Source of the DNA: Alphaproteobacteria bacterium
GTDB taxonomy: Bacteria; Pseudomonadota; Alphaproteobacteria; Bin95
Direction: 5' to 3'
Length of the DNA stretch: 64,000 nt
Assembly (NCBI GenBank): GCA_963665325.3
Contig: CAXXWS020000003.1
Location: 224,001 to 288,000, forward strand
The translations under genes and the position numbers were made by a program. Below the pieces are notes generated by a model. It was not told the DNA's origin. It made no database searches and saw only the letters and a program-made list of their open reading frames with translations. This document shows positions 1 through 55,275 of this stretch, piece by piece. How positions within the stretch are numbered: the stretch's first letter is position 1; each line of letters begins with the position of its first letter.

Positions 1-3000
1 TTCGGTCTCATCGGCGCCGAGCGCGACCTGGTGGCCGGCGTCGTTGCTCGCATCGGCGGGCATGATCGATGCGGTCCCGCCGTCTGCCCCGGTCGCCGTC
101 ACCGTCGCCTTGTCGAGGCTCCCCGTAATCGTCGCCGTGTAGGCTCTGGTCGACCCGGCGAATACGGGCGTCAGGGCAACCTCCGAACCCCCGTAGGAAA
201 GCTGAAGCGAGCCGAGCAGCGCTGCAGCAAGTGTCTGGTCGCCCCGCACCTTGTGACCTGAGCGCGCGGTCAATCGCGTGCCACCGATATCGGCCTCGCG
301 CTGGTCCGATACCCCCTTGATGGTCGCCCCGTTCAGCACCAGCGCATTGTCCGGAACGGCGAGGCCGTCGTCGTCCCGGTCCGATGCCACCACGGTGTGC
401 TCGAAGTTGAGGGTCCGGCTCCCGGTCATGTCCACGTAGGCGAAGGCTCTCTCGACCACCGGGTTCGACGAGTCGAAATTCACCTGGAGCGTGGGGGCGC
501 CGCCAGTGGTATCGAGTGCGATGTCTGCGGTGAAGGTCACGGCGATGGCGATGCGCTCACCCTGCGCATAGGTGTCGCTGCCGTGCAGCGGCGTGGAAGT
601 GACCGTCACCTCCTGGATGCTCGGTATGCTTCGATTGACCTGTACCGTCTTGCGTCCCGGGTCCACGCTGTCGTAGCCGCCGCCGGTGCCGGTGTGGGTC
701 AAGGCAAACGTGCCGCTCGTGCCGGTCACCGGATCCGCGGCGGTCACCGTGACGGTTTGCGCCTGATACCAGGTGTCGGGCGTAAACGTCAGGCTGGTGG
801 GGCTGGTGGCGAGATTGTCTCCACCGCCGGCAATGGCCACTTCGACATTGCCGGTCGGCCGCCTCTTCAGGCGGACGCGGTAGTCGCCGGACGCGCCTTC
901 GTCGATCGTGACCGTCGCGGTCGAGAACTTGTAGCCATAGGCGATGTCGTCGTCCTCGACGAACACTGGCAGGGTGACGTCAAGCGCATCGTCGTAGCCA
1001 CCGCCGGAGGCGCTGTGCTTCAGCGAATAGTGCTCTTCGTGGTCGGCGCTCGCGTCGTTGTTCGACCTCACGCTGATCTGCTGCGGCTCATCCCAGTTGT
1101 CGGTGGTGAAGGTCAGCGACGCCGACCGGCCCCCGCTACCGGTTGGAACGGTGCTGCCGACACCGACTCGCAGTCGATTGATGCCACCACCGGCGGCCCG
1201 GCGCGCGATTGCCACCGTCACATCGCCGGTCGGCGCACTTCCCAGCACGACCGTGTAGCTCGAGACGGGCAGCTTGGTTGTCGCGTCTGCCTCCAGGACA
1301 TGCAGGAGGGTCTCGGAAAGCAGGATCGCCGGCGTGGGCGCCATTTCCGTGACCAGTACATCCAGCTTGGCGGTGACCCCCGCGTAGTCGCCTCCGCTCG
1401 CTGTGTAGGTCAGAGCCACCTGATCATCGTCCGAATCGGAAGCGGCGGCCGCAGAGACCGTGACCGTCAGCGGCTGGTCCCACACATCGGGTTCGAACTC
1501 GAGCCGGGTCGGCGTGACCGTGAGGTCGGTGCCCGCATGTCCGGCCAGGTCGAGCGTCACCTTGCCCGTCGGTTTGGTCGCCAATTGGACGGTCCAGGTG
1601 GCGCTCGTGTCTTCGGGCACCGACAGCGAAGAGACCGAGAGTGTGATGTCGGGAACATCATTGTCGCTCAGGGTGACGTCGATATCGGCACTGACCGACC
1701 GATAGTTCCCGCCGCTTGCGCTGTGCGTCAGCGTGGGGTTCCCGCCGGACGCATCGTCATCCTGGGATGCCGTCAGGCTGACGGTCTGGGCCTGGTTCCA
1801 GTCCGACGAGGTGAAGCTCAGCCGGCTCGGGCTCGCGACGATGCCGGAGCTGGCGCCGGCGTCGATCGAGACGGTGACCGCTTCGCTCGGCGCGGTCGCC
1901 AGCGCCACCGTGTAATCCACGGTCTCGCCTTCGGTGATGTCGATGGACGATACCGAGAGGCTGAGCGCAGACGCGTCGTCGTCATAGATGGTCCCCAGCG
2001 CCGCCGACATGGTCCCGAGTTCCGCGTTGGTCGAGGGGTTCGACAGAGTCAGGGTGAAGGTCTCGGGGGTTGCCTCGTCGACGCTGTCCTGCGTCGTCGC
2101 GATGCTGATCGTGCCCGACGTCTCACCCGCGGCAATGGTCAGCGTCGTGCTGTTCACCGCGGTGAAATCCGTGGCGGAAGCCGTATCGGCGGCGGCGATC
2201 GAGGTCTCGTAGTCCACCGTGACATCGTCCGCGGCCGCAGGACTCAGGGTCACGGTGAACTCCACGCTCGAGCCCTCGACGGCAGATGCAGGGGCGATGT
2301 CGAGATCGGGAACGATGTCGCTTGCGAGAATCGTGCCGGTGGCCGATGCGGGGCTGCCGAGGACGGCGTTCGCGGACGGGCTGGACAGCGTGACGGTGAA
2401 CGTTTCCGCTTCTTCTTCGATGCTGTCGTCGATGGTCGCGATGGAGATGGTGGCGCTGGTCTGCCCGCTCGAGATGGTGACGCTCTGCGCCGATGCCGAC
2501 GTGTAGTCCGAACCGCCCGTCGCGCTGCCATTGCTGGTCGCGTACTCGACCGTCACGTCGTCGGAAAGCGACTGGCTGAGCGTGACGGTGAACTCCACGG
2601 CCGAGCCCTCGGCTGCCGATGCGTCGGAAATGCTCAGTTTGGGATAGTTCGGGTTGGCGTGGCCCTGAACGCTGAAGAGGAGGGAATCGGTTTCCGTAGT
2701 GGCGTTGCTCCAGCTCGAGCCGGTTTTATTCAGCCGGTTGTCTCCGATGCTCCAACCCGAGAGGCCGGTCGAGTCCTCCGTATCCGTTTCGTGCTTCCCC
2801 CAGGTCATCCGGTCGTTTTGCGACGCGTGCTCCTCGTTCACCACCACCCAATAGGTGGTGTTGGGCTCCAAGGTGATGTCTGCGGGTGCCGCGTAGGAAT
2901 GAAATGACGGCGGGACGCCGAATTGGATGCTGACGTCGTCCGGGGAGTCAGCGAGCTCGGCAAGCAGCGTTCCCGGGCGACCGGCGTTGTCATGCTTGAC

Positions 3001-3540
3001 GGTGGCGTAGGTGCCCGACCTGGCCGAAGCGGACGAGGTGTTTGAGGGAGCGAGCCGGATAGCGGACAGCGTATAGCCGGCGGCATTGTCACCCGTGGTG
3101 AAACTGGTGGCCGCGACGTCCGTATTGACGCCACAAAAGCATGCCAGGCTCTCGTTCGAGACCAGGGTTCGCGTCGTCTGCGCCTGCGCCTGTGCCGGCG
3201 CTGCCAGCAGCATCGCGAACGCCAGCAGGGCAGCCACCGGAAACCGCTTCGCAAGAAGCCGGAAGGCAGCGCTCGACGCGGCCCACGGCCGGCAGGCTGC
3301 GACTCGCGATACGTTGGCGGGCGTATCCGACAATCCTCCGTGTGGGCTTGCGACCTTCGTCGTCGCGGGCAATACCCTCGTAGACGTCTCGTCTATCGGG
3401 CACAGCGCGCGCGCTGTGCCCTCCGGCCACCGGGGCACAACCGCCACGCACTTTTCCGTTCCCGCCTCCAAGATGGACTTGGCGAGCCTCGCCAACCGAC
3501 CCGTCACCCGATGGGACCCCCTCACACTCTCTGACCGCAT
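1..3540 (-). CDS. Large secreted surface protein/adhesin (signal peptide, choice-of-anchor-R-like domain, Calx-beta and Ig/cadherin-like repeats); 3' end outside the window, start uncertain (ATG 3540 or TTG 3333)
   Basis: Absent from the ORF track (no stop in window). My translation gives VAALLAFAMLLAAPAQAQ, then TLVSNES..SFTTGDNAAGYTLSAI..LEPNTTYWVVV..GWSIGD, then repeats such as LSISDASAAEGSAVEFTVTLS..DDSIEEEAETFTVTLS and LTFTPDTWYQAQTVTV. Confidence 0.85.
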   Translation of the reverse strand, partial: MRSESVRGSHRVTGRLARLAKSILEAGTEKCVAVVPRWPEGTARALCPIDETSTRVLPATTKVASPHGGLSDTPANVSRVAACRPWAASSAAFRLLAKRFPVAALLAFAMLLAAPAQAQAQTTRTLVSNESLACFCGVNTDVAATSFTTGDNAAGYTLSAIRLAPSNTSSASARSGTYATVKHDNAGRPGTLLAELADSPDDVSIQFGVPPSFHSYAAPADITLEPNTTYWVVVNEEHASQNDRMTWGKHETDTEDSTGLSGWSIGDNRLNKTGSSWSNATTETDSLLFSVQGHANPNYPKLSISDASAAEGSAVEFTVTLSQSLSDDVTVEYATSNGSATGGSDYTSASAQSVTISSGQTSATISIATIDDSIEEEAETFTVTLSSPSANAVLGSPASATGTILASDIVPDLDIAPASAVEGSSVEFTVTLSPAAADDVTVDYETSIAAADTASATDFTAVNSTTLTIAAGETSGTISIATTQDSVDEATPETFTLTLSNPSTNAELGTMSAALGTIYDDDASALSLSVSSIDITEGETVDYTVALATAPSEAVTVSIDAGASSGIVASPSRLSFTSSDWNQAQTVSLTASQDDDASGGNPTLTHSASGGNYRSVSADIDVTLSDNDVPDITLSVSSLSVPEDTSATWTVQLATKPTGKVTLDLAGHAGTDLTVTPTRLEFEPDVWDQPLTVTVSAAAASDSDDDQVALTYTASGGDYAGVTAKLDVLVTEMAPTPAILLSETLLHVLEADATTKLPVSSYTVVLGSAPTGDVTVAIARRAAGGGINRLRVGVGSTVPTGSGGRSASLTFTTDNWDEPQQISVRSNNDASADHEEHYSLKHSASGGGYDDALDVTLPVFVEDDDIAYGYKFSTATVTIDEGASGDYRVRLKRRPTGNVEVAIAGGGDNLATSPTSLTFTPDTWYQAQTVTVTAADPVTGTSGTFALTHTGTGGGYDSVDPGRKTVQVNRSIPSIQEVTVTSTPLHGSDTYAQGERIAIAVTFTADIALDTTGGAPTLQVNFDSSNPVVERAFAYVDMTGSRTLNFEHTVVASDRDDDGLAVPDNALVLNGATIKGVSDQREADIGGTRLTARSGHKVRGDQTLAAALLGSLQLSYGGSEVALTPVFAGSTRAYTATITGSLDKATVTATGADGGTASIMPADASNDAGHQVALGADETE

Positions 3541-15355: not shown

Positions 15356-16573
15356 CTACCCGATCGCGGTCCGGGTTCCGGTCTCGAACTCGATGGCGGC
15401 CAGGTCGTCGCCGGCGATGGCGCGCTCGAAGGCGGCGAGGCGCTTGTAGATCGACATCAGCTCCACGATCGTCGTCCAGCTGTTGACCAGGAACTGGAAC
15501 GAGTTCTCCACCCGGCCGAAGGCGCGGACGATCTGCTGCATCACGCCGAGCGAGAACCCGGCCGAGATGATGGTCGGCCCGAGCACCACATAGGGCAGCA
15601 TCACGCCGGCCTGCAGATAGCCGTAGCGCACGACATTGAAATAGAGGTAGTTGAGGTAGAGGCGGAAATAGTTGCGCCGGACATCGGCGAACAGCTCGCC
15701 GAGGGTCGGCGGCTCGGCCCGGTCCTCCCGGTCCTCGCCCATGACGAGCTCCTTGCGGAAGGCGGCCTCGACGCGCTGGTTGCGGAACTCGAGCCCCGGC
15801 AGGCGGTAGCCGGCAAGCGCCAGGATGCCGGTGCCGAATACCGACCAGAAGAGCGCGACCCAGACCAGCGCCTGGCCGACTTCGCCGAAGACGGGGATCT
15901 CCTTGATATGGACCGACAGCACCCAGAGGATCGGCAGGAAGGCGATCAGAGTCATGACCGCGTCGATGAGGCGGGTGCCGAGCGATTCCATGATGCCGGC
16001 GAAGCGCATGGCGTCTTCCTGCACCCGCTGCGAGGCGCCCTCGATATGCCGTACCTGCGGCCAGAGCCGGACATAGCGGTCGTTGATCGCGGTGCGCCAG
16101 CGGAAGACGAAATGGCTGGTGAAGAAGTGGTTGAGCACGGCTGTGGTGATGAACACCATGGCGATGGTGAGGAAGGTGGCGAGCTGCGCGTAATAGTCCC
16201 CGGCCGTGACCGCGCCCGGCTCCGCCAGCGCCTTCTGGATGATGTCGTAGAAGGTCCTGAACCACTCGTTGATCATCACGTCGAGCTGCACCTGGAACCA
16301 GGTGACGAAGACGATCAGCGCCGAGCCCGCCACCGACCAGCGCGACCACGGGTGCGGCCGGAACGCCATCCAGAACACGGCGAAGGCGGCATAGGCGAGG
16401 AAGGAATAGACATAGACCCAGACGGCCCTCTCGTCCGCGCCGACCAGGCCCGAAAGCCCGGTCGGGTCGCCCCAGTCCCCGGCAACGAAATACCAGAAGA
16501 GCAGCGCGGCGAACGCCCACGCCACCGCCGAGATGCCGAACGCGCGCGGGCTCGGGAAGAAACAGCCGAACAT
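15356..16573 (-). CDS. sbmA: SbmA/BacA peptide transporter
   Basis: FRWRTA, RHIEGASQRVQED, NQRVEAAFRKELV, SWTTIVELMSIYKRL. Confidence 0.92.
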   Translation of the reverse strand: MFGCFFPSPRAFGISAVAWAFAALLFWYFVAGDWGDPTGLSGLVGADERAVWVYVYSFLAYAAFAVFWMAFRPHPWSRWSVAGSALIVFVTWFQVQLDVMINEWFRTFYDIIQKALAEPGAVTAGDYYAQLATFLTIAMVFITTAVLNHFFTSHFVFRWRTAINDRYVRLWPQVRHIEGASQRVQEDAMRFAGIMESLGTRLIDAVMTLIAFLPILWVLSVHIKEIPVFGEVGQALVWVALFWSVFGTGILALAGYRLPGLEFRNQRVEAAFRKELVMGEDREDRAEPPTLGELFADVRRNYFRLYLNYLYFNVVRYGYLQAGVMLPYVVLGPTIISAGFSLGVMQQIVRAFGRVENSFQFLVNSWTTIVELMSIYKRLAAFERAIAGDDLAAIEFETGTRTAIG

Positions 16574-16698
16574 GGGGAAACCCTTTCGCCGGAATAGCCG
16601 GCCCCGGCAGGCGCAGACGCGCCCCGGTCCGGCGGCTGGAACGATGCCCGGCGGCTATAGCAAATTCGGCGGGTGGGCGGACCATAGGGATGCGGAAA

Positions 16699-16735
16699 GT
16701 GTAGCTTGACGCTATACACCCGCCATGGATAGCAT
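16699..16735 (+). promoter_or_regulatory. Putative higBA promoter with an imperfect inverted repeat around -35; probably leaderless
   Basis: TTGACG (16706) -18 nt- TAGCAT (16730); ATG 5 nt later; GTGTAGC..GCTATACAC flanks the -35. Confidence 0.5.
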
Positions 16736-16740
16736 CGGGC

Positions 16741-17031
16741 ATGAAGATCGCGAACGTGGTCCACAGGGGGCTGCGCCGGCTCATCCAGAACGACGACACC
16801 GCCGGCGTGCAGCCTGCCGTCGCGCCGAAACTTCGGCGAATGGTATCCTTCCTCCAGGACATGGAACGGGAGGAAGAACTGCGGACGGTGCCGGGCTGGA
16901 AGGCGCACCGGCTAACAGGCGACCGCAGGGGCGTCTGGAGCCTGTCAGTCACCGGGAACTGGCGGCTTACATTCCGGATCGACCGGGAAGCGGGCGAAAT
17001 CGTCGATCTCGACTATGAGGACTACCATTGA
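16741..17031 (+). CDS. higB: HigB (RelE/ParE-like) toxin
   Basis: HRGLRRL..HRLTGDRRGVWSLSVTGNWRLTF..DLDYEDYH. Confidence 0.92.
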   Translation: MKIANVVHRGLRRLIQNDDTAGVQPAVAPKLRRMVSFLQDMEREEELRTVPGWKAHRLTGDRRGVWSLSVTGNWRLTFRIDREAGEIVDLDYEDYH

Positions 17032-17040
17032 GAGGCAGGT

Positions 17041-17343
17041 ATGGCTGAGGCACAAGGCATCCGCATGAAGAATCCCGCCCACCCCGGCGGGTTCGTGAAA
17101 AGCGAGGTCGTGGAGGCCCTAGGGCTCTCGGTGACGGGGGCGGCCAGGGCGCTCGGCGTGACGCGGGCCGCACTGTCCGCCGTACTGAACGAGCGCGCGC
17201 GCCTGTCGCCGGAGATGGCGCTGCGCATCGAAAAGGCGTTCGGCATATCGATGGACACGCTCATGCGGATGCAGAACAGCCACGATATCGCCCAGACCCG
17301 CATGCGGGCGGAAGAGATCGAGGTCGCTCTCTTCGAGATTTGA
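17041..17343 (+). CDS. higA: HigA antitoxin (XRE HTH)
   Basis: PAHPG..LGLSVTGAARALGVTR..SPEMALRIEKAFG. Confidence 0.92.
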   Translation: MAEAQGIRMKNPAHPGGFVKSEVVEALGLSVTGAARALGVTRAALSAVLNERARLSPEMALRIEKAFGISMDTLMRMQNSHDIAQTRMRAEEIEVALFEI

Positions 17344-17380
17344 GCCGCGGCGTCCGAACCGGCGCCGAACGGCGCGTCAA

Positions 17381-17500
17381 CTGGACCCCGCCATCGCCGC
17401 CAGGGCCCTCGTGCACGGGATGACTGTCGTTACGCGAAACTGCGCCGATTTCAAGACGGCAGGCGTCGAACTCCTCGATCCCTGGGCCCATAGACGGTAG
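17381..17500 (+). pseudogene. vapC: C-terminal fragment of a VapC/PIN toxin
   Basis: LDPAIAARALVHGMTVVTRNCADFKTAGVELLDPW*; no N-terminal half or proper start. Confidence 0.7.
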
Positions 17501-17605
17501 ATGGCAGCCGCCCGGTTCGGGCCATAGCTCCGGCCCGTGGGGCTGGCTTTGATAACAGCAGACTCCTCACACAAGCACACATTTTTATGTGATCGTGTAT
17601 CATAT

Positions 17606-18403
17606 TCAGTTACCTTCTCGCCGTTTGCGCAACAATTTTCTCGATGGCCTCAGAATCCTCCTTTCTGCCAATCGAAGGATTTTTCCATGAAGATTAACCG
17701 TTGCGGCCAAACCAGCATCGCTGTACTGTTTCCTGTGTGTACATTTCCCTGCGTACAAGATTTCAAATGTATCAGATATGTCGATCCACTTTCTATCGAA
17801 GAGCCTGTGATGAGTGGCACATAGAAGCATGCCGTTTCTTGGTGAGATACGGAGTAATTCATCTGACTCAGTCCAAGGAATAATATGTGCTGCCTCCAAG
17901 GCTTCTTCAAAACTAAGACTGCATACAGCGCATCGACAACCGTATGCACTCAATAGTGCTTTTCGAAAAACGATCTGTGCAATTCCACGAACTTTTACTT
18001 TCCTATAAATTTCATCGGCTCGTTTTGGATTCTCAACAAGCTCTATTGCCAGCGTCTCTATAGTATCGTGTCTACTCAAAGCACCGAAGGGATTCTCCAA
18101 ATTCTTCCAAGTGAAGCGATAAACTTTCTCATGCGCCTACCCGATCCTAGCTCTGTCATAAACATTAAATCCCTGACCAGGCTTTCTTGTCCACTTATTG
18201 ACTACTATCGAGGTTAGTGGAGGCAGATGGTTGTTCTTGCAATAGTACAAAATTGGACCAAGTCCTTTTCCAACATTTCGATTATTTGTATCAATCAGAG
18301 GAGCTAAATCCTCATAGTGCAAGGTCTGCCTCTTCTCGGATGCCTTGACGAGGGCGGGCCATAGCAACCTTGCCGCATATTCCCAGTTCTTTGCCACAGT
18401 CAT
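17606..18403 (-). pseudogene. Winged-helix-like + HNH endonuclease with one in-frame TAG (18137-18139)
   Basis: Track ORFs 18137-18460 and 17606-18100 share a frame (..RARIG*AHEKVYRFTWKNLENPF..); HNH motif CAVC..LEAAHIIPW..NGMLLCATHHRLFD; low GC; GGAG before ATG 18403. Confidence 0.8.
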
Positions 18404-18636
18404 ACTCCACAGGTCTTGAGCTATTTCGCGCTGAAGTCCCGGTACCATACAATGATACAACTCAATCTTGTCTGTAAACCCCAGGTGAATCTCGTTGGGA
18501 ATTCAGCCGTTGGCCATTCCCTAGCCCCTTCCACAGCTTCGAGTTGTCAGCTAAGCCGCCGACAGATCGCTCAAGACTTTGCCGACCTCTGCCCGGTGCC
18601 GTCTTGACGTACATTCAGGCGAAGGGAGGCGGTATC

Positions 18637-18843
18637 ATGGCTCGGGCGAACACAGCAGGAAGCGGGCGCATCGACCTGCGGCTCAGCGAAGCGGCGAAGC
18701 GGCGTATCGACAGGCGCGAAACCCTGGTGCTCGTCCGCGAGGACGCGAGGCGCTTCTTCAAGGCCCTCGCCGCTCCGCCGCCGCCAAACGACCGGCTCCG
18801 CGCCGCTCTCGAAGAACATGCCCGGCGCGTCGACTCCCGTTGA
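18637..18843 (+). pseudogene. DUF1778 (TacA/AtaR-like) antitoxin, apparently internally deleted
   Basis: RIDLRLSEAAKRRI joined directly to ETLVLVREDARRFFKALAAPPPPNDRLRAAL; the usual second RHH helix appears missing; GGAGG RBS. Confidence 0.7.
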
Positions 18844-18945
18844 CCGAAGCGCATGCGCCGACCGTCGAGCCGCCCGCGAAACGGCACGACCGGACGGCCT
18901 TTTCCTGCGGCCTGCCCCAACCGGACCGCTACCTTGCGCAGCAGC
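18840..18945 (+). pseudogene. N-terminal fragment of a GNAT toxin (TacT/AtaT-like)
   Basis: TTG overlaps the antitoxin stop; HDRTAFSCGLPQPDRYLAQQ, then similarity is lost. Confidence 0.7.
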
Positions 18946-19063
18946 CGGCCAGGGCCCGGAATCGGGTCCGGGGCGGCGGATGGGCATGAGCGCAGAAATC
19001 GATATTTATTCCTGACAAATCAATCTCATGGCAGGTGAATACGGAAATTTGTGCCCGAAGGGC

Positions 19064-19102
19064 TTGCAATCCGGTGTAGTGATAGTAGAATAAAACACGA
19101 AC
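19064..19102 (+). promoter_or_regulatory. Sigma70-like promoter with an overlapping alphaproteobacterial LexA-like box
   Basis: TTGCAA-16 nt-TAGAAT; GAAT-N7-GAAC at 19088-19102 (consensus GAAC-N7-GAAC). Confidence 0.5.
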
Positions 19103-19321
19103 ACACTGGGAAGTGGCATCCGTAGCCGCTTCCCGTCACGCCGGCGCCGGCGCAAAAAACCACCGACGGGACCGACGGGAGACGTGCGCCCTGCGACCGG
19201 CTCGCGCGCGGGTGCTCGCAGGCGCAATCAGGCGTGCGAACCGCGCCGGCGCGCCACGCGCGTCCGCCCGCCCGCGATACGCGCGGATCAGGGTCCCGCC
19301 GCGCCGGGGAACCGGGCGGCG

Positions 19322-19483
19322 CCGCTATCTGCAATGTTCGCCGCGTTCGGCGCGGCGGCGCCGCTATCTGCAATGTTCGCCGCGTTCGGCGCGGCGGCGG
19401 CGCCATCTGCAATGTTCGCTGCGTTCGGCGCGGCGGCGCCAACGCCGCCATTCGAAATGGTCGCCGCGCTCAGCGCGGCGGCG
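19322..19483. repeat. 39-bp tandem repeat, 3 copies plus 1 degenerate, with internal hairpin
   Basis: CCGCTATCTGCAATGTTCGCCGCGTTCGGCGCGGCGGCG and variants at 19322, 19361, 19400, ~19445; stem CGCCGCG-TTCGG-CGCGGCG. Confidence 0.9.
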
Positions 19484-19521
19484 GCGAGAACGGAACGAAG
19501 ACGGATCGAGAGGAGGGGCCG

Positions 19522-19671
19522 ATGCCGAAAACCGGAAGCCTGGAAAACCGGATGGAATGTCCGGCCCGAAACAGTGGCCGCATGCCCGAATCGGCTGCCG
19601 GATATGAGCCGTTCGCATGGCCGGCCATGACAAATCATGACATCGCACGACCCCCTCATGAGAAAACATGA
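19522..19671 (+). CDS. Possible 49-aa small ORF within element copy 1
   Basis: AGGAGG RBS; MPKTGSLENRMECP..; stop falls inside a CATGAC heptamer. Confidence 0.35.
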   Translation: MPKTGSLENRMECPARNSGRMPESAAGYEPFAWPAMTNHDIARPPHEKT

Positions 19672-19824
19672 CATTTCATGACATATCCGAAGGGTCTTCC
19701 CGGATACGGGCCGGACCGGGATGCGCGCATTCGCCGGCCGGCATGCCCCTGCGCAAATGCAAGCAGCCGGCGGGAGGGGGGCCCGCCGGCTGCGCTGCCA
19801 GTCAACGGTGGGAGGAAACCGTTG

Positions 19825-20007
19825 CTAGCAGGGTATGCCCGGCAGGAGGCAGGCATGCGCCGGCTCCGGGCTGCCGGTGAGCACGATCATCGCGACCGCC
19901 GCGATGGCCAGCGCCAGCCCTGCCGTGGCGAGGACCCGGCGTCCCTGCCCGTTTCCGCCGTTCCGGACGCATGGCCACTCGACGCCTGTCCATTTGCGAA
20001 TGCTCAT
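19825..20007 (-). CDS. 60-aa putative secreted peptide precursor (predicted mature CLLPGIPC)
   Basis: GGGAG RBS; RR then hydrophobic VLATAGLALAIAAVAMIVL, then PAHA cleavage-like motif, then CLLPGIPC*. Confidence 0.55.
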   Translation of the reverse strand: MSIRKWTGVEWPCVRNGGNGQGRRVLATAGLALAIAAVAMIVLTGSPEPAHACLLPGIPC

Positions 20008-20294
20008 TTGTCTGCTCCCCGGCTTCGCGCCGTCTTCATCGGAACCTCTCGTCCGGCGTGGCGCAGCGCCGAACCGGACAATTGGAATCTGGTGGCGGCA
20101 CCGAAAAAGCGCCAATACGGTTTTCCTTGGGCGGCTATAGGTTCCGGCCCGCCGGGGACCGTGACGTGGGGAGAAATGCGATGGACCGGGAGCAGGGTAA
20201 GGGCGGCGTCTTCCCGGCGCATAAGGCAGCCCGCGACGCGCCATTATCCAACCCGGACGACGCTGCCTGTTCGCCCCCTTTCGACGAGGCCCTG

Positions 20295-20921
20295 TCAGTT
20301 CCGGATACGCCAAAGCCCGCCCGCCGTCCGGCAGGCGACGACCGGCGGGGCGCCGTGCTGGAGGATGCGGCAGTCGCGGTAGGCGTAGCGCTGGCGGTGG
20401 CCGTGCCGGGGTCCGGCGCGGCCCGGATGCAGGCCGGCCGGGGCGTGGCGTCGCGGCGGCTTCCAGCCGTGGCGGGGCGGCCGGTCCGGGATATGGGCAT
20501 GGGGCGGTCCCCAGCCGTGGCGATGGACGAAGGCCGGGGCGTGGACATGGGGCCGCTTCCATCCGTGGCGATGCCCGTGCCGGTGTTTCGGGACATGGTG
20601 GACATAGGGCGGGGGATGCCGGTGGACCCGGTGTCCGCGCCAGTGCCCGTGCCGGCGCGGCGGCGGGCGGACATGCCCCGGCGGTTGGCGGCGGTGCGCG
20701 TCGATATGCTGCCCGTAGAGGGTGCCCAGCAGCGTGCCGGCGCCGATTGCGACCAGCCGCCCGTTCCCCTTGCCGATCGTCGAGCCGATCAGCCCGCCGG
20801 CAATACCGCCCCAGATCGCGCCGTCGTCTGCCCGGACGGGGCCTGCCGCGAGCGTCGAGGCGAGCGCCATGACAGCCGTCAACGCGATCCCGCCGGCGAA
20901 GCGCAGTTTCCGAATTCGCAT
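20295..20921 (-). CDS. Secreted glycine-zipper protein with a His/Pro/Arg-rich region
   Basis: Signal peptide ending VRA; GAIWGGIAGGLIGSTIGKGNGRLVAIGAGTLLG; C-terminal C..ACR..G.W; GGAGG upstream. Confidence 0.8.
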   Translation of the reverse strand: MRIRKLRFAGGIALTAVMALASTLAAGPVRADDGAIWGGIAGGLIGSTIGKGNGRLVAIGAGTLLGTLYGQHIDAHRRQPPGHVRPPPRRHGHWRGHRVHRHPPPYVHHVPKHRHGHRHGWKRPHVHAPAFVHRHGWGPPHAHIPDRPPRHGWKPPRRHAPAGLHPGRAGPRHGHRQRYAYRDCRILQHGAPPVVACRTAGGLWRIRN

Positions 20922-21254
20922 CCTTGCCGTCCTCCGCTTCCGTTGTCGGGCCCCGGCGAACGACGCTCCGGCAAGCCGGAATCCATGCGGCAGCCCGTCG
21001 TAGCCATGATCCGCGAAGCGCCGCCGCCGGGCAATCGACGGACGGTTTCCGCTTGGTGAGGAATTGTAACGATTTGTGTCGGGGCTCGATCTGGGGGAAA
21101 GCATGGCAGAATGCCTGCAGGGAGCGGCTGAGGCCGAAAAAAGCCTCGGCGGGAACGGACAGGGAAGGTGTGCCCGCGCGCCCTTCCCTCTGCGGGGGCG
21201 AGTGCTGTATGTCTCGATGCGTTGCCGCTGGCGAAACGAAAGGAACCGGGCCCC

Positions 21255-21989
21255 ATGCGCCTTGACGGGAAGACTGCGATCGTGACGGGAGCCGGCTCCG
21301 GCATCGGGCGGGCCGTGGCGGAGACGCTGGCCGGGGCGGGCGCGCATGTGGTCGCGACCGATATCGACGAGGCGGCCGTGGCCGAGACCGCGGCCGCGGC
21401 GCGCGAGGCCGGCGGCTCGGCGGAGGCGCGCGCGCTAGACGTCACCGACAAGGCCGCCATCCTGGAGACCGCCGCCTCGCTCGGCGCCGTCGATGTGCTG
21501 GCCAATGTCGCGGGCTGGGACCGGATCATGCCCTTCACCGAGAACACGCCCGAGTTCATCGAGCGCATCGTCGAGCTCAACTATCTGGGCGCGGTGCGCA
21601 TGTGCCACGCACTGCTGCCGGCGATGATCGAGGCGGGCGGCGGCAAGATCGTCTCCGTCTCCTCTGACGCCGGCCGCGTCGGCTCGATGGGCGAGACCGT
21701 CTATGCCGGCGCCAAGGGCGGGATCATCGCCTTTTCCAAGTCGCTCGCCCGCGAGATGGCGCGGAACAACATCAACGTGAACGTGGTCTGCCCCGGCCCC
21801 ACCGACACGCCGCTCTTCCGCGGCCAGCCGGAGCGGATGCAGCAGGCCCTGATCCGCGCCATCCCCTTCCGCCGGGTCGGCACGCCGCAGGACCTCGCCA
21901 ACGCGGTTCTGTTCTTCGCCGGCCCGCTCAGCGACTATGTCACGGGCCAGGTGCTGAGCGTCTCCGGCGGCCTCACCATGGTGGACTGA
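21255..21989 (+). CDS. SDR oxidoreductase (BadH/FabG-like)
   Basis: TGAGSGIG, NVAGWD, YAGAKGG, CPGPTDT. Confidence 0.9.
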   Translation: MRLDGKTAIVTGAGSGIGRAVAETLAGAGAHVVATDIDEAAVAETAAAAREAGGSAEARALDVTDKAAILETAASLGAVDVLANVAGWDRIMPFTENTPEFIERIVELNYLGAVRMCHALLPAMIEAGGGKIVSVSSDAGRVGSMGETVYAGAKGGIIAFSKSLAREMARNNINVNVVCPGPTDTPLFRGQPERMQQALIRAIPFRRVGTPQDLANAVLFFAGPLSDYVTGQVLSVSGGLTMVD

Positions 21990-22482
21990 CCGCGTCCTCC
22001 TCCCCGATGAGCGCGGCGGACAGCCGCTCGTCCACGCGGCCGGGATGGTCGGGGTCGGCGGAATCGACATATTCGACGAGGCAGAGCGCGACGGAGACCG
22101 CGCCGCCCGCGCCGTCCTCTCCGTGGAGGATGGCCGGGACCGTGTAGCCGACCTCGCGCGGATAGGCATCGTGCGGCTCCAGCCGTTCGAAGCCCTCGAT
22201 GAGCGGCGTCTCGACCTCGCCGACCAGCACGGCCGGGCCGGTGCGCCGTCCCTCCCGCCGCCCGGCGGCGAGCCAGCGCAGCTCCGCCCCGTCGGCAATC
22301 ATGCGCGCGTCGAAGGCGGCCTCGACCAGCGGCGGGCCGGCCTCGAAGGAGGCGACCCGGACGCCCTCCGCGGTGGTGAACAGCGCCGTGCCGGGGCCGA
22401 GGCCGAGCCGGCGCCAGGCATCGACGGTCCAGGCGAGCGTGGCTTCGTCGGCCCGCGCCCGGTAGAGGCGGACGGCGCTCAC
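21973..22482 (-). CDS. Csx19-like (type III-D CRISPR-associated) protein, orphan
   Basis: FDARM..AELRWL..G..GPAVLV.E and EYVD..G.VDERL resemble the Csx19/TIGR03984 pattern as I recall it. Confidence 0.5.
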   Translation of the reverse strand: MSAVRLYRARADEATLAWTVDAWRRLGLGPGTALFTTAEGVRVASFEAGPPLVEAAFDARMIADGAELRWLAAGRREGRRTGPAVLVGEVETPLIEGFERLEPHDAYPREVGYTVPAILHGEDGAGGAVSVALCLVEYVDSADPDHPGRVDERLSAALIGEEDAVSPPW

Positions 22483-22507
22483 GCGGTGGGACTTTGCGGG
22501 AGGCTGC

Positions 22508-22583
22508 TGGTGGGCCCGGCAGGATTCGAACCTGCGACAACGCCGTTATGAGCGGCGGGTTCTGACCGCTGAACTACGGGCCC
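22508..22583 (-). tRNA. tRNA with CAU anticodon, probably tRNA-Ile2 (lysidine) rather than Met
   Basis: GGGCCCGTAGTTCAGCGGTCAGAACCCGCCGCT-CAT-AACGGCGTTGTCGCAGGTTCGAATCCTGCCGGGCCCACCA; encoded CCA; upstream TTGCGG-17-TATATT. Confidence 0.93.
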
Positions 22584-22629
22584 GCTGCAATATAGCCCGG
22601 ACCGGCCGCCGCAATCGAGGGGCCGCGTC

Positions 22630-25095
22630 TCAGTCGACATCGAAAACGGCCTGCTTGAGCACGGTGGCGAGCTCCGCGACGGGGGCGGCCCAGTCGTCCA
22701 GGCGCTCCTGGCGGAACAGGCGCGAGGCCGGATACCAGGGGCTGTCGTCGCGGTCCGAGAGCCAGCGCCAGTGCGCCGGGCGGGTCAGCAGCACGGCCGC
22801 GGGCACGCCGAGCGCGCCGGCGACATGCACCGCCGGGCCGTCCGGGCCGATGACCATGTCGAGGGACGAGATCGCTGCCGCCAGTTCCGCGGCATCGGTG
22901 ATCCGGGTCGAGATGTCGGTGATGCCGGCACGGCTGCGGAGCGCCGCCAGCGTTCGCGAGCCGGCCTCGGTCTCCAGGCTGAAAAAGGCCGCGCCCTCGG
23001 TGTCGAACAGCGGCGCCATCGCCTCCAGAAGCGCGCGGTCGCCCCAGGCGACGCCGACCCGCAGCCTGGCCGGCCGGGCGAAGCGGGACCGCCAGTGGCG
23101 CGCCAGCATCTCGTTGGGCCGGATATAGGGGATGTTGGCGGGGATCGTCTCCAGCGTCGTGCGGAACAGGCGGGGCAGGGCCGCGGCCGGCAGCGTCACG
23201 GCCCCTTGCGGCCGGGCCTGCCCGGCGACGAGCACGCCGTCCACACCGTCCAGGCCGGCAATCAGGCGCTGGAGCCCCGGTCGTACCGCCGCCAGCACCC
23301 GCCCGGCGGACTCCAGCAGCGGTGCATAGCGCAGCAGCCAGATCGCCTCGATATCGTTGGCGACCGCGTCGATGATGACCTCCGCGCCCCTGACGGCCCG
23401 GAGCCCGGCCGGCGGCAGCGGCCCTGCGGGCAGCAGCGGCAGGCCCGCGTCGAAATCGCCCCGGCTCAGCAGCGCGGAGGCAAGCGCGGCCGCCGTGGCG
23501 CGATCGTCGGGCGCGAGGTCGTGGGCGTCGGTATAGACCTCCAGCGCCTCGTCGGCGCGGCCGAGCGCCTCCAACGCAGCGGCGTGCTGGAGGCGCGGCT
23601 CCGGGGAGGCCGGATCCAGGGTCACGGCGCGGGCCGCGATCCGCTCGCGGTCCCGGTGCGCGCCAATCCGCGCCAGCACCCCGGCGAAGGCGCTGTGGAC
23701 CCCGGCGTCGCCGGGCGCAGCGGCCACGGCGCGGTGCAGCGCACGGGCGGCGTCGTCAAGGCGGTCCTGGGCCAGCGCCAGATCGCCCAGCAGGCGGTGC
23801 ATCCGCGCGTCCCCGCGCCACGGGTGCCCGCCGGCGGCCAGCAGCGCCGCCGCGCGGCGCACCTGCCCCTCGGCAAGCGCGGCCTCGGCTGCGGCAAGCC
23901 GGTCCGCGTTCCGGGCAAGGCCGCGCTCGATCTCGCGCCGGACGATGGCGAGCGGCACGCTCCAGTCTCCGGCGCGCTCCTGCCGCACGAGGCGCATGGA
24001 GGGATACCACGGCGTGTCGCGCCGGGCTTGGAGCCAGCGCCAGTCGGGAGCGATGCCGAGCATCATCCAGCAGGGCCGGCCGAGCGTGCCCGCGAGATGG
24101 CCGATCGGATTGTCGTCGCTCACCACCATCTCGAACTCCTCGAGCACCGCGGCGGCAGCATCCAGCGCGAACGGCGCATCGGCCAGCGGCGTCATGCCTG
24201 GCACCGGCTCGAGGAAAGTGTAGAAGTGGGCACCGGCGAGATCGCGAAGCCCTTCCGGCCAGGGCTCGACGCCGCTCCAGGCGACCGCGATGCGCGGCGA
24301 GGGCGCTCCGGCCAGCGCCTCCTGCCAGTAGCGCCGCTGCCTGGGATTCACGTGCAGGCCGGCGGGCGGCGGCACGGTCGCCGGCGTCGTCTCGAACACG
24401 CGCGGCAGGTCGTCGAAACCGACCGTGAGGTCGTAGGGCGGGCGGTTCTCGCCCGGTGCAGCGAGCCAGAGCAGGCCGGGCAACTCCGACAGCAGTCCGG
24501 CGGCCGCCTCGCTGCAGGCAATGGCCGGCACGGCGCCCCGCGCGCGCAGCGCCGGCAGGTAGCGGGAGAACTGTACGGCGTCAACGTCGTTCTCGCCGGC
24601 GTCCACCAGCAGGGTTTCGCCGTCGAGGCGCCGTCCCTCCCAACGTGGCGGCCGGTAGCGGCTGGTATCGCCGGCAGTGTCTTCCAGCGCCCGCGCGCGC
24701 CCCCAGGCGGCCCAGCCTTCCGCATAGCGGCCGTTCAGAAGCAGCAGCGTGCCGTTCAACCAGTGAATGTCGATATCGCCCGGCGCCAGCTGGGCAGCGC
24801 GCGCGGCCGAAACCGATGCCTCGCCGGTCAAGCCGATCTGGCGCAGAACCAGTGCCAGTTCGCCCAGAATCCCCGCATCGGAGGGCCGCAGGTCCGCGGC
24901 CAAGCGCAAATGCCGGGCGGCCTCGTCCTGGCGGCCCTGTCCGTAATGCAGCCGTGCCAGGCCCAGATGGCCGTCGGCGCGGCCGGCCTCCATTTCCAGC
25001 ATCCGCTCATAGAGCGCCGCTGCACGCTCATGATCCCCGGCGGCAAGCAGCTCGGCGGCGTGCCGGACCGTTTCTTCAAGGGACGAGGCGTTCAT
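22630..25095 (-). CDS. TPR + glycosyltransferase-like protein with two tandem modules
   Basis: Two copies of TPRs followed by HLAGTLG..DWRW..TPWYPSMRLVRQ / HVAGALG..HWRW..SPWYPASRLFRQ. Confidence 0.8.
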   Translation of the reverse strand: MNASSLEETVRHAAELLAAGDHERAAALYERMLEMEAGRADGHLGLARLHYGQGRQDEAARHLRLAADLRPSDAGILGELALVLRQIGLTGEASVSAARAAQLAPGDIDIHWLNGTLLLLNGRYAEGWAAWGRARALEDTAGDTSRYRPPRWEGRRLDGETLLVDAGENDVDAVQFSRYLPALRARGAVPAIACSEAAAGLLSELPGLLWLAAPGENRPPYDLTVGFDDLPRVFETTPATVPPPAGLHVNPRQRRYWQEALAGAPSPRIAVAWSGVEPWPEGLRDLAGAHFYTFLEPVPGMTPLADAPFALDAAAAVLEEFEMVVSDDNPIGHLAGTLGRPCWMMLGIAPDWRWLQARRDTPWYPSMRLVRQERAGDWSVPLAIVRREIERGLARNADRLAAAEAALAEGQVRRAAALLAAGGHPWRGDARMHRLLGDLALAQDRLDDAARALHRAVAAAPGDAGVHSAFAGVLARIGAHRDRERIAARAVTLDPASPEPRLQHAAALEALGRADEALEVYTDAHDLAPDDRATAAALASALLSRGDFDAGLPLLPAGPLPPAGLRAVRGAEVIIDAVANDIEAIWLLRYAPLLESAGRVLAAVRPGLQRLIAGLDGVDGVLVAGQARPQGAVTLPAAALPRLFRTTLETIPANIPYIRPNEMLARHWRSRFARPARLRVGVAWGDRALLEAMAPLFDTEGAAFFSLETEAGSRTLAALRSRAGITDISTRITDAAELAAAISSLDMVIGPDGPAVHVAGALGVPAAVLLTRPAHWRWLSDRDDSPWYPASRLFRQERLDDWAAPVAELATVLKQAVFDVD

Positions 25096-54332: not shown

Positions 54333-54692
54333 ATGATTGCCGTCATATTCGAAGTGGAGCCCGCCGAGGGCCAGCGGGACACCTATCTCGATATCGCTGC
54401 GGGGCTGCGTGACGAGCTGATGGAGATGGACGGCTTCATCTCCATTGAGCGGTTCGAGAGCCTGAACCGACCGGGCAAGCTGTTGTCGCTGTCGTTCTGG
54501 CGCGACGAGCAGGCGGTGCGCGCATGGCGCAGCAGGCCGCGCCACCGCGCCGCGCAGACACGCGGCCGCGGCGGGGTCTTTTCCGGCTATCGCCTGCGGG
54601 TGGCGTCGGTAGTCCGTGACTACGGGTTGGAGGAACGGGCCGAGGCTCCTTCGGATTCCCGCGACCTGCACGACCCGGCACCCATTGCCTGA
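54333..54692 (+). CDS. Antibiotic biosynthesis monooxygenase family
   Basis: MIAVIFEV, DGFISIERF, LSLSFWRDE. Confidence 0.88.
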   Translation: MIAVIFEVEPAEGQRDTYLDIAAGLRDELMEMDGFISIERFESLNRPGKLLSLSFWRDEQAVRAWRSRPRHRAAQTRGRGGVFSGYRLRVASVVRDYGLEERAEAPSDSRDLHDPAPIA

Positions 54693-54753: not shown

Positions 54754-55275
54754 TTGACATAAGGGAAAATAAACCGATATAAGACCTGCAGAAGGGGCAT
54801 CCGGAGCCGCTTCTCCGGCGCCGCGCGGCCGGCGGCGCCATTTTCGAAAACCCCTGAGAAACTGACGGGAGACGTGCGCCCTCTGCCTCGCGCGCGCAAT
54901 CAGGTGCGCGAACCGCGCCGGCGCCAACGCGCGCCCGCGCCCGTGTGCGAAACGCGCGCGGCAAAGGGTCCGCCGCTCCCGGACCGGCAAGGAGACAGGA
55001 ATGACCGCAACCGACCCCCGCCCCGCACTCGCGGCGATGCCAGCCCGGAGCCGCCGCCCCCGGACGAGGCGTCGTGACACCCCCGGTGAGCCGGAGGCGG
55101 TGTCCGGCTACGACGGCAGCCGGGACACGCCCGAAATCAGGGCGTGGGACGAACGGCAGAAGCGCCGCAAGGAGGCCTCCAGCGCCCGCTACCTCGAGGC
55201 CGCCGGCCGGCGCGGAACATGACAAAACATGACATTCCGCAGCCGGAACATGACAAAACATTACATTCCATGACG
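54754..55275 (+). repeat. Dispersed element, copy 2
   Basis: TTGACA-18-TATAAG; same leader blocks and same heptamer phasing as 19064-19683. Confidence 0.8.
55001..55222 (+). CDS. Possible 73-aa small ORF within element copy 2
   Basis: AAGGAG RBS; stop falls inside the first CATGACA heptamer. Confidence 0.45.
   Translation: MTATDPRPALAAMPARSRRPRTRRRDTPGEPEAVSGYDGSRDTPEIRAWDERQKRRKEASSARYLEAAGRRGT

Follow-up and report, generated by a model that had tools for sequence, protein, structure and literature searches.

An apparently undescribed family of modular, dispersed elements in a genus of uncultured marine Alphaproteobacteria

Here we describe a family of modular intergenic elements dispersed through an alphaproteobacterial genome of 5.58 Mb (five contigs, 67% GC). 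Two members lie on the forward strand of the 64,000-nucleotide stretch that was analysed (the window; positions 1-64000, corresponding to C4:224001-288000). Each is built, from left to right, of a promoter, a conserved leader, a variable middle (hereafter the cargo), an array of CATGACA heptamers and a short tail (Table 1). A preliminary description of the window had reported two loci that share five ordered blocks, each set following a promoter and ending in a heptamer array. Reading and aligning both loci, we found all five blocks in the same order and on the same strand, and the arrays are real at both. These blocks are part of a family that numbers about 70 copies rather than two. The promoters are present at both loci and belong to the repeated unit, the homology among copies beginning about 40-105 nt before the leader.

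When copy 1 was compared with the genome by BLASTN, its segment 19215-19300 matched about 65 further places, with similarity beginning sharply near 19108. Three rounds of nhmmer (E <= 1e-5, profile of about 190 positions) gave 69 leader copies, 62 of them full length; one lies 2.2 kb past the end of the window. A simple two-copy duplication or a chance resemblance is refuted by these copies and by the hundreds more in 13 related genomes. A CATGACA-type array, defined by a rule that we set (ATGACA at 10-nt steps), follows 65 of the 69 leaders on the same strand. Genome-wide there are 77 arrays, 71 of which lie within 2.4 kb downstream of a leader on its strand, and one of the six orphans adjoins a terminase-gene remnant. 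A three-unit array pattern occurs 36 times in the genome and its reversed control not once. In an all-against-all comparison of copies with their flanks, similarity stopped just past the array on the right. The module at C4:510104 measures 406 bp, and the unit reaches 1.4 kb with a protein gene. In one place (G000:C1:1882789-1883199) modules stand in tandem, the first array being followed directly by a second, 5'-truncated leader with its own array.

A search of the whole window against Rfam at the gathering score returned a single match, the tRNA gene at 22511-22583 (minus strand), and a search around copy 1 (E <= 10) gave nothing above 21 bits or near the gathering score. Promoter and leader together had no BLASTN match in the plasmid and phage collections, and literature searches centred on the array, on intergenic repeats of sponge symbionts and on multicopy small terminases gave no description of such a module family. 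The proposal that the family is new is thus borne out at the level of these collections.

Nearly every leader copy is preceded, within 90 nt, by T(T/C)GTTC, an A/T-rich block resembling GAAATAATTCC, cTTGAC and a -10 element such as TGcTAGAAT, in this order; two rarer arrangements exist, and copies 1 and 2 each represent one of them. A promoter with at least 9 of 12 matches lies within 66 nt of 42 of 66 full-length leaders (spacers of 15-18 nt), against 105 of 20,000 random windows, and a TGn extension is present in 33 of these 42. The promoter of copy 1 is the only promoter-like match in 18900-19900 (shuffled sequences give a mean of 0.2). That of copy 2 went unreported by the scan because its -10 element lacks the final T (position 6). 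At an orthologous site in three species, the promoter hexamers are kept despite differing spacers.

The leader is GC-rich, about 190-230 nt long, opens with a terminal hairpin (P1) and holds a near-invariant core; the remainder differs by 20-25%, both between paralogues and across species. An AGGGTCC-like motif stands at the leader end and again after the array. P1 begins a few nucleotides after the expected start of transcription; of 127 distinct sequences, 126 have a P1 of 8 bp or more. A covariance model of P1 gave 48 matches (43 distinct) with 91.4% of cells paired, against 6-83% when the partners were slid. In an alignment fitted to the model, and hence favouring it, four of the nine pairs are changed on both sides, G-U occurs at eight of the nine, and the covariation score is reached by none of 500 shuffles. 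The P1 region is more stable on the sense than on the antisense strand in 113 of 144 copies; it folds only about 3 kcal/mol better than dinucleotide shuffles, and 95 of 127 sequences beat their own shuffle mean. Consensus folds of MAFFT alignments were inconsistent with each other and contained compensatory changes at only 1 of 24 and 2 of 35 pairs. The GC-rich, self-complementary stretches of the leader permit many pairings, and in the core, being invariant, covariation is uninformative. The evidence for the leader at the RNA level is therefore modest: of the structured non-coding RNA proposed in the preliminary description, the P1 hairpin with some compensatory change stands, whereas the automatic consensus folds found almost none. 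On the minus strand, at 19160-19178 and at the same place in most leaders, an A5-7 run with an adjoining hairpin reads as a weak intrinsic terminator (hairpin, then U5-7); 78 of 132 leaders have, on the antisense strand, a hairpin of -6 kcal/mol or lower that ends within 3 nt of the U run. Such a hairpin could block antisense transcription from reaching the module promoter.

The arrays start 70 to about 2300 nt after the leader and consist of two to six CATGACA units with a period of 10-11 nt; the longer ones have spacings of 10, 21, 10 and 10 nt or of 21, 20, 21 and 20 nt. The right tail that follows is about 20 nt long (consensus cTTCnnnnGGAGTGGGCCCC) and contains GGAG. Array composition is 15% G and 27% C in a genome of 67% GC. 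Because ATGA recurs every 10 nt, each reading frame meets both a TGA stop and an ATG in the array. Stops in the full set of frames are found in 54 of 65 modules, compared with 44 of 5000 random segments, and an ATG in each frame in 51 of 65. It is possible that the array is a set of phased protein-binding sites on DNA, which the 10/21-nt spacing would favour, or that it is a Rho entry site, such sites being likewise G-poor. The reverse-strand TGTCAT repeats were considered as a Pho-box-like backward promoter, which was rejected because no -10-like sequence is suitably placed. The two edges of the element, TTGTTC... on the left and ...CATGACA plus tail on the right, do not form an inverted pair. 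A direct ATGAC motif left of the promoter was rejected as a defining terminal repeat for its weak enrichment (9 of 66 modules against 4.8%).

Between leader and array, the cargo is a mosaic of non-coding blocks, a 326-aa terminase-like protein, a lineage-specific protein family or ordinary host genes. Short modules contain a 39-nt tandem repeat, purine-rich stretches with GGAGG and CATG-rich, hairpin-like blocks. Cargo of the MTATDPRP... family comprises open reading frames (ORFs) of 28-522 codons, including frameshifted and internally deleted forms. The small ORF noted earlier in copy 2 does belong to a real family of 150-190-aa proteins, as an internally deleted member. The ribosome-binding-site-led small ORF of copy 1 did not hold up as a conserved gene: between related copies there are indels whose lengths are not divisible by three, so that the blocks are kept and the frame is not. 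Isochorismatase-like, epimerase-like and hydrolase-like ORFs represent ordinary genes, some of which are bracketed by two arrays downstream of one leader (C3:762134, C1:2515652 and C3:65287), and one module holds an inserted insertion-sequence (IS) transposase. The idea of exchangeable cargo is supported in that conserved ends flank a varying middle and that one orthologous site carries different cargo in five species.

One explanation of this variation takes the leader end and the array as recombination sites, in the manner of integron attI and attC, at which a recombinase encoded elsewhere would swap cargo. Different cargo at the same site in different species, ordinary genes between two arrays and the AGGGTCC-like motif on both sides of the cargo would all fit. 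No integrase is associated with the modules examined, however, the repeats are direct heptamers and not attC-like imperfect palindromes, and ordinary homologous recombination between the conserved ends gives the same pattern. Leader subtype also co-varies with cargo type, which points to lineages with deletions rather than to free shuffling. We consider site-specific exchange of this kind highly improbable.

The terminase-like ORF is intact in five modules. Residues 11-80 of its product match positions 2-71 of the 141-position PF03592 (Terminase_2) profile (E 4.7e-12; 47 bits against a cut-off of 26.1). These five copies, all within modules, are the only PF03592 matches over the cut-off in the genome; a sixth match, below it at 21.4 bits, is the remnant at C3:1325052 next to a leaderless array. 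Pairwise dN/dS among the five copies is 0.16-0.31 (dS 0.12-0.24), and the gene is selectively maintained in the longest modules. It always ends inside the array, with the TGA of the second unit as its stop codon. Deletion derivatives of the terminase-bearing module exist (C1:2447100), and shorter members of the family look like internal-deletion derivatives. In the AlphaFold model (mean pLDDT 57.5), only the helix-turn-helix (HTH; pLDDT >90, residues ~10-60) and the two helices after it are confident. The protein has a long acidic tail, and a catalytic domain is absent from both the Pfam match and the model. Relatives fall into more than 300 cluster representatives; those among the matches listed are all 64-93% identical and of similar length, and two of them carry names from their source, as terminase small subunit, uncultured Alphaproteobacteria. 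Viral contigs contain only three distant relatives, 31-32% identical over the HTH only. Of the 13 module-bearing genomes compared, 12 have several copies of the gene; the three module-free ones have none. Copies within the present genome are 92-93% identical in amino acid sequence, against at most 84% between genomes, where flanking genes are 92-96% identical; this indicates amplification after speciation, or gene conversion.

Such a gene invites a reading in terms of DNA packaging, in which the terminase-like protein would land on the CATGACA arrays as on pac sites, the arrays marking many points on the chromosome for packaging or some other DNA transaction. The only recurrent protein of the modules has a confidently modelled HTH of the SPP1 small-terminase type, its gene always ends in an array, direct repeats about one helical turn apart are typical of small-terminase sites, and arrays and protein co-occur in 12 genomes and are both missing in three. 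Against this, no large terminase stands beside any copy: PF03354 has no match in the genome, and the one PF03237 gene belongs to a Mu-like prophage far from any module. Each of the five terminase-like genes is followed directly by the array and then by unrelated genes, with no packaging genes adjacent, and no HK97-type capsid gene was found in the genome, so that a link to a packaging machine was rejected for this genome. The distant viral relatives, the arrays of G009 that occur without the protein, and a promoter and leader that packaging leaves unexplained also speak against it, and we judge it very unlikely. The Mu-like prophage (L232, G000:C1:474500-494000) contains a Mu I protease, Mu portal, GemA, MT-A70 methylase, lysozyme and T4-type large terminase; its Mu F-like protein has a C-terminal ADP-ribosyltransferase domain.

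The family is unevenly distributed among relatives. Among the 16 other genomes of the genus, 13 gave many leader BLAST matches (up to about 20 listed per genome), G001 and G014 one weak match each, and G003 none; eight genomes of two sister genera gave none, and two single weak matches lay elsewhere in the class. The exact three-unit array occurs 7-129 times per genome in the same 13 genomes and is missing from G001, G003, G014 and 20 sister-genus genomes, with a reversed control of zero throughout. These three genomes, together with G009, are the most divergent from the present one in flanking genes (82-90% identity, against 91-94% for the rest). The absence of modules among the most divergent genomes suggests that the family arose or expanded within the genus. 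A pattern scan for the leader core covered the genomes of 185,579 species; 78 of the 80 matches listed, of at least 103, are records titled uncultured Alphaproteobacteria, the two exceptions being a 1.8-kb contig from a Pseudohongiella bin and a contig of a Rhodospirillales metagenome-assembled genome. As far as these genomes and records indicate, the family is confined to one uncultured genus of marine bacteria.

Empty and filled states of the same site in close relatives show that single modules have been inserted. The 406-bp module at C4:510104 occurs in this genome only, among 17 genus genomes compared. Nine of the 16 others keep both flanks on one contig without a module: in seven the flanks abut or overlap, and in G003 and G014 20-73 bp separate them. 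The remaining seven show no module at the site either; the two flanks fall on separate contigs in G010 and G004 and far from each other in G013, only one or neither was matched in G001 and G002, and G016 has a 44-bp gap with a shorter left match. The flank in the nearest relative is 96% identical. Read by hand, the empty state is ...TGA-CGG(G/A)GGGCGGGGC-ATGGAGCAC..., and in the filled state the module separates GGCGGGGC from ATGGAGCAC, standing after the ribosome-binding spacer and before the ATG. At C1:289248, seven genomes have an overlapping stop/start junction (CTTTGAACCGGCC meeting CAATCTCG), at least five have a module, and two have a 130-bp filler rich in repetitive extragenic palindromic (REP)-like palindromes. 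Beside this site, in L225 (G008, ~2880-3010) and in L222 and L227 (G007 and G013), REP-like palindromes (such as GTCATGCCCGGACTTGTTCCGG and its inverse) and repeated GGGYATGACGG fill the spacer. Within the window, the copy 2 module and the 119-aa gene beside it are both missing in G016 and G013, where the neighbouring genes abut. At C3:84201, the site of a terminase-bearing module, an array occupies the same position in five of the eight genomes aligned, preceded by a different sequence. A 282-bp repeat adjoins the left edge of a terminase-bearing module (L194, ~2822-3103) and has at least 11 copies, ~90% identical, in G012.

Modules point in the same direction as the next gene in 46 of 65 cases, about 3.3 standard deviations above an even split, as counted from crude gene calls (longest ORF plus a GC3 filter) with unreliable start codons, and many modules end within 100 nt of the start of that gene. 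The downstream genes were considered as a regulon, which was rejected: 20 sampled genes are unrelated (H+-pyrophosphatase, LepA, hydrolases and a transposase fragment among them), and only three are mutual paralogues.

We favour, with moderate confidence, the interpretation that these are genus-restricted, modular intergenic elements, each a small transcription unit, and that they are promoter-bearing elements that are mobile or were so recently. The promoter would fire rightward, so that each element would bring its own outward-reading promoter. The transcript would open with a stabilising 5' hairpin, as in ompA-type leaders, in which such a hairpin protects the RNA, and would continue through the cargo to the array. 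Cargo ORFs would end in the array, after which the tail would offer a Shine-Dalgarno-like GGAG. With stops and starts in all frames followed by GGAG, a module could sit between genes, even within an operon, handing on transcription and translation; it would then cause little polar damage and feed expression into its neighbour.

Several observations weigh against parts of this interpretation. The stops in three frames follow automatically from a 10-nt ATGA repeat and so are not independent evidence of selection for such a role, and with 19 of 65 modules facing a convergent gene, driving the next gene cannot be their general role. The 9-of-12 rule fails for 24 of 66 promoters, which look similar but have longer spacers or weaker -10 boxes, and the whole leader folds slightly better antisense (sense more stable in only 62 of 144 copies). 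As for mobility, no terminal inverted repeat was found (only 4 of 66 modules have GTCAT[CG] left of the promoter, a motif present in 4.9% of random windows). A possible target duplication consists of GGGC at both C4:510104 junctions and CGGCC at C1:289248, four to five GC-rich bases that may agree by chance. No module encodes a transposase, integrase, reverse transcriptase or nuclease for the family, as judged from cargo ORFs only. The best pairs of copies within the genome are 80-93% identical and none is near-identical, which means that no burst has happened recently. Certain modules are orthologous and match their flanks in conservation: the module at C4:979950 and the class II aldolase gene next to it are found in three genomes, 89-92% identical like the flanks, and the block is absent from the others. 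This fits stable, possibly useful residents as well as selfish elements. Finally, G009 has modules, with few arrays and divergent leaders, but no terminase-like gene.

Alternatively, the modules would be small RNA genes or 5' leaders that serve the host, each making a regulatory RNA, with the core and CAUGACA as sites for an RNA-binding protein or for Rho loading, the copies being kept by selection at their loci and mobility being incidental. A near-invariant core in a leader that otherwise differs by 20-25%, promoter hexamers kept across three species, the orthologous C4:979950 module, G-U pairs and some compensatory change in P1, and an array as G-poor as Rho sites can all be cited in favour. 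Yet three species of the genus lack the family, its copy number ranges from a handful to more than 100, the neighbouring genes share no common function, the modules carry protein genes and captured host genes, and a lineage-specific insertion was found; spacings of 10, 21, 10 and 10 nt, moreover, keep helical phase, which is relevant to DNA and not to RNA. We think a host-serving RNA role of this kind unlikely as the main account.

The preliminary description proposed a non-autonomous cassette acted on by a trans factor; insertion polymorphism and an exchangeable middle agree with it, but no copy with a transposase, integrase, reverse transcriptase or nuclease was found, and the trans factor remains a guess. 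The sole recurrently encoded protein is the terminase-like binder. An autonomous transposase partner with the same ends did not emerge, the longest members encoding only the terminase-like HTH protein, and no genome-wide search for unlinked transposases was made. The terminase-like protein, binding the phased CATGACA repeats, is a candidate mover, a suggestion that we put forward tentatively and hold to be rather improbable. A fuller version, in which a domesticated small-terminase binder would recognise the repeats and draw in host replication or recombination functions, by which the module would be copied and its cargo exchanged, with the leader RNA acting in cis as scaffold, guide or antiterminator, would amount to a new kind of mobile element; this we regard as doubtful and decidedly unlikely.

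The surroundings of the two copies in the window differ. Copy 1 sits in ~3.9 kb that lacks synteny in any relative and is assembled from several repeated pieces; its 39-nt repeat is a sub-module found in several other family members (read as MFAAFGAA..). To its left, 18706-18950 is a separate repeat of ~250 bp, 82-90% identical in at least five other genus genomes. Just to its right, on the minus strand at 19763-19793, a strong 12-bp GC hairpin followed by TTGCATTTGC is the likely terminator of a convergent gene. Beside copy 2, between it and a conserved upstream gene, lies the 119-aa ORF (54333-54692; MIAVIFEVEPAEGQ...), which we take, from the look of its sequence, to be ABM (antibiotic biosynthesis monooxygenase)-like, and which occurs at other places in G015 and G008. 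In four public sequencing runs, short-read contigs covering 16500-23500 end at the copy 1 leader (~19250) and resume at ~19420, and depth over the leader rises 10- to 30-fold; breaks and pile-up of this kind indicate that the family fragments metagenome assemblies of the lineage.

Table 1 Features of the two modules in the window (positions in the window)
Feature	Position	Strand	Basis or remark
Copy 1, AT-rich UP-element-like block upstream of promoter	19009-19063	+	Common to 2-3 other copies of the same promoter subclass; homology to C5:46102 from ~-99
Copy 1, sigma-70-type promoter: TTGCAA (19064-19069), 16-nt spacer, TAGAAT (19086-19091)	19064-19091	+	9/12 matches
Copy 1, P1 hairpin at leader 5' end: GGGAAGTGGC / loop / GCCGCTTCCC	19108-19134	+	>=8 bp in 126/127 distinct leaders
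Copy 1, conserved leader (C4:243108-243304), profile positions 2-189	19108-19304	+	Profile match E 2e-41
Copy 1, near-invariant leader core: GCGCAATCAGGCG(C/T)GCGAACCGCGCCGGCGC	19222-19252	+	Most columns invariant in 41/41 sequences
Copy 1, second conserved leader block: CGCGATACGCGCG..AGGGTCC	19273-19296	+	Family alignment
Copy 1, 39-nt unit, 3.2 tandem copies	19315-19440	+	95% matches, score 231
Copy 1, 49-codon ORF (MPKT...) after GGAGG; probably not a gene	19522-19671	+	Frame not kept in related copies; no Pfam family
Copy 1, array of six units, spacings 10, 10, 11, 10, 10 nt	19626-19683	+	Exact CATGACA at 19626, 19636, 19667, 19677; degenerate at 19646, 19657
Copy 1, right-end tail: TATCCGAAGGGTCTTCCCGG (family consensus cTTCnnnnGGAGTGGGCCCC)	19684-19705	+	Similarity between copies stops after it
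Copy 2, promoter: TTGACA (54754-54759), 18-nt spacer, TATAAG (54778-54783)	54754-54783	+	Read from sequence
Copy 2, leader (C4:278791-278977)	54791-54977	+	Profile match E 1.7e-33
Copy 2, cargo: 73-aa ORF, internally deleted MTATDPRP... family member	55001-55222	+	Stop codon within first array unit; no Pfam family
Copy 2, array: three exact CATGACA + CATTACA + CATGACG	55218-55275	+	Exact at 55218, 55228, 55249; degenerate at 55259, 55269

If our interpretation is right, the genomes of an apparently sponge-associated genus are strewn with strong promoters, from some 20 to more than 100 of them, each ahead of a fixed RNA leader, and this would rewire the expression of many unrelated genes. Empty sites, bare modules, captured genes and protein-coding members form a natural series in which the spread of repeat families without a recognisable transposase can be followed. 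The terminase-like protein and the phased repeats offer a testable protein-DNA pair, binding being our proposal, and the leader adds an RNA candidate, not yet catalogued, of which hundreds of variants exist in nature.

The modules share single traits with several known systems. At the pac sites of SPP1 and P1, the small terminase acts with direct repeats that are spaced by about one helical turn and lie beside or within its gene. The present family has the same HTH family (PF03592) and direct repeats about one turn apart, but its protein is 326 aa long with a long acidic tail, has no large-terminase partner and is multicopy, and its repeats occur at about 77 places per genome. IS91 and ISCR elements lack inverted repeats and a clear target duplication, abut a GTTC-type motif at one end and capture adjacent genes by running past the first 3' end. 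The T(T/C)GTTC left edge and the genes found between two arrays are reminiscent of them; the ends, however, have no known similarity, and no HUH transposase is present in the cargo ORFs, no genome search aimed at HUH having been made. Integron cassettes differ in that the 3' element here is a direct heptamer repeat, and no integrase was seen in or beside the modules examined (no IntI search of the genome was made). With 69 copies and insertion polymorphism between relatives, the family resembles miniature inverted-repeat transposable elements, but it has no inverted repeats and, as far as the cargo shows, no transposase partner. Mycobacterial interspersed repetitive units (MIRUs) lie between the genes of operons as 46-101-bp tandem units and carry stop and start codons that keep the flanking genes translationally connected; they have neither promoter nor leader, whereas the present family has both.

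Reused or 'mobile' promoters of prokaryotes are highly similar promoter segments before unrelated genes in one genome (PMC3575422). Compared with such promoter-only segments, which are defined by similarity, the family has defined ends, a leader, cargo, a 3' array and insertion polymorphism. REPINs are short palindromic doublets served by a single-copy RAYT transposase, and the present family has no such palindrome. REPIN/RAYT systems are presented as intragenomic sequence populations that are long-lived, confined to lineages and variable in copy number (PMC8049555), traits that the family shares.

In the way it works, the family is most like BOX elements, which are modular mosaics, and Correia elements, which are promoter-bearing miniature repeats. 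BOX elements of Streptococcus pneumoniae are dispersed between genes and consist of a conserved 5' box, variable internal repeats and a conserved 3' box, with a predicted RNA fold. To our knowledge they lack coding members, a phased heptamer array and a promoter of their own, and their host is of a different phylum. The present family is likewise a modular mosaic but has its own promoter, coding members and a phased heptamer array. Correia repeats (CREE) of Neisseria are ~100-150 bp long, carry a TA duplication, are bounded by inverted repeats and have promoters that arise at their ends. They are described as short, multicopy, intergenic and variable in position between related genomes, as bringing promoters to their neighbours, and as capable of being transcribed and processed (PMC2649163). 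The modules described here lack the inverted repeat; the unit combines a whole promoter with a 190-nt leader, cargo and an array of direct repeats, and reaches 1.4 kb with a protein gene.

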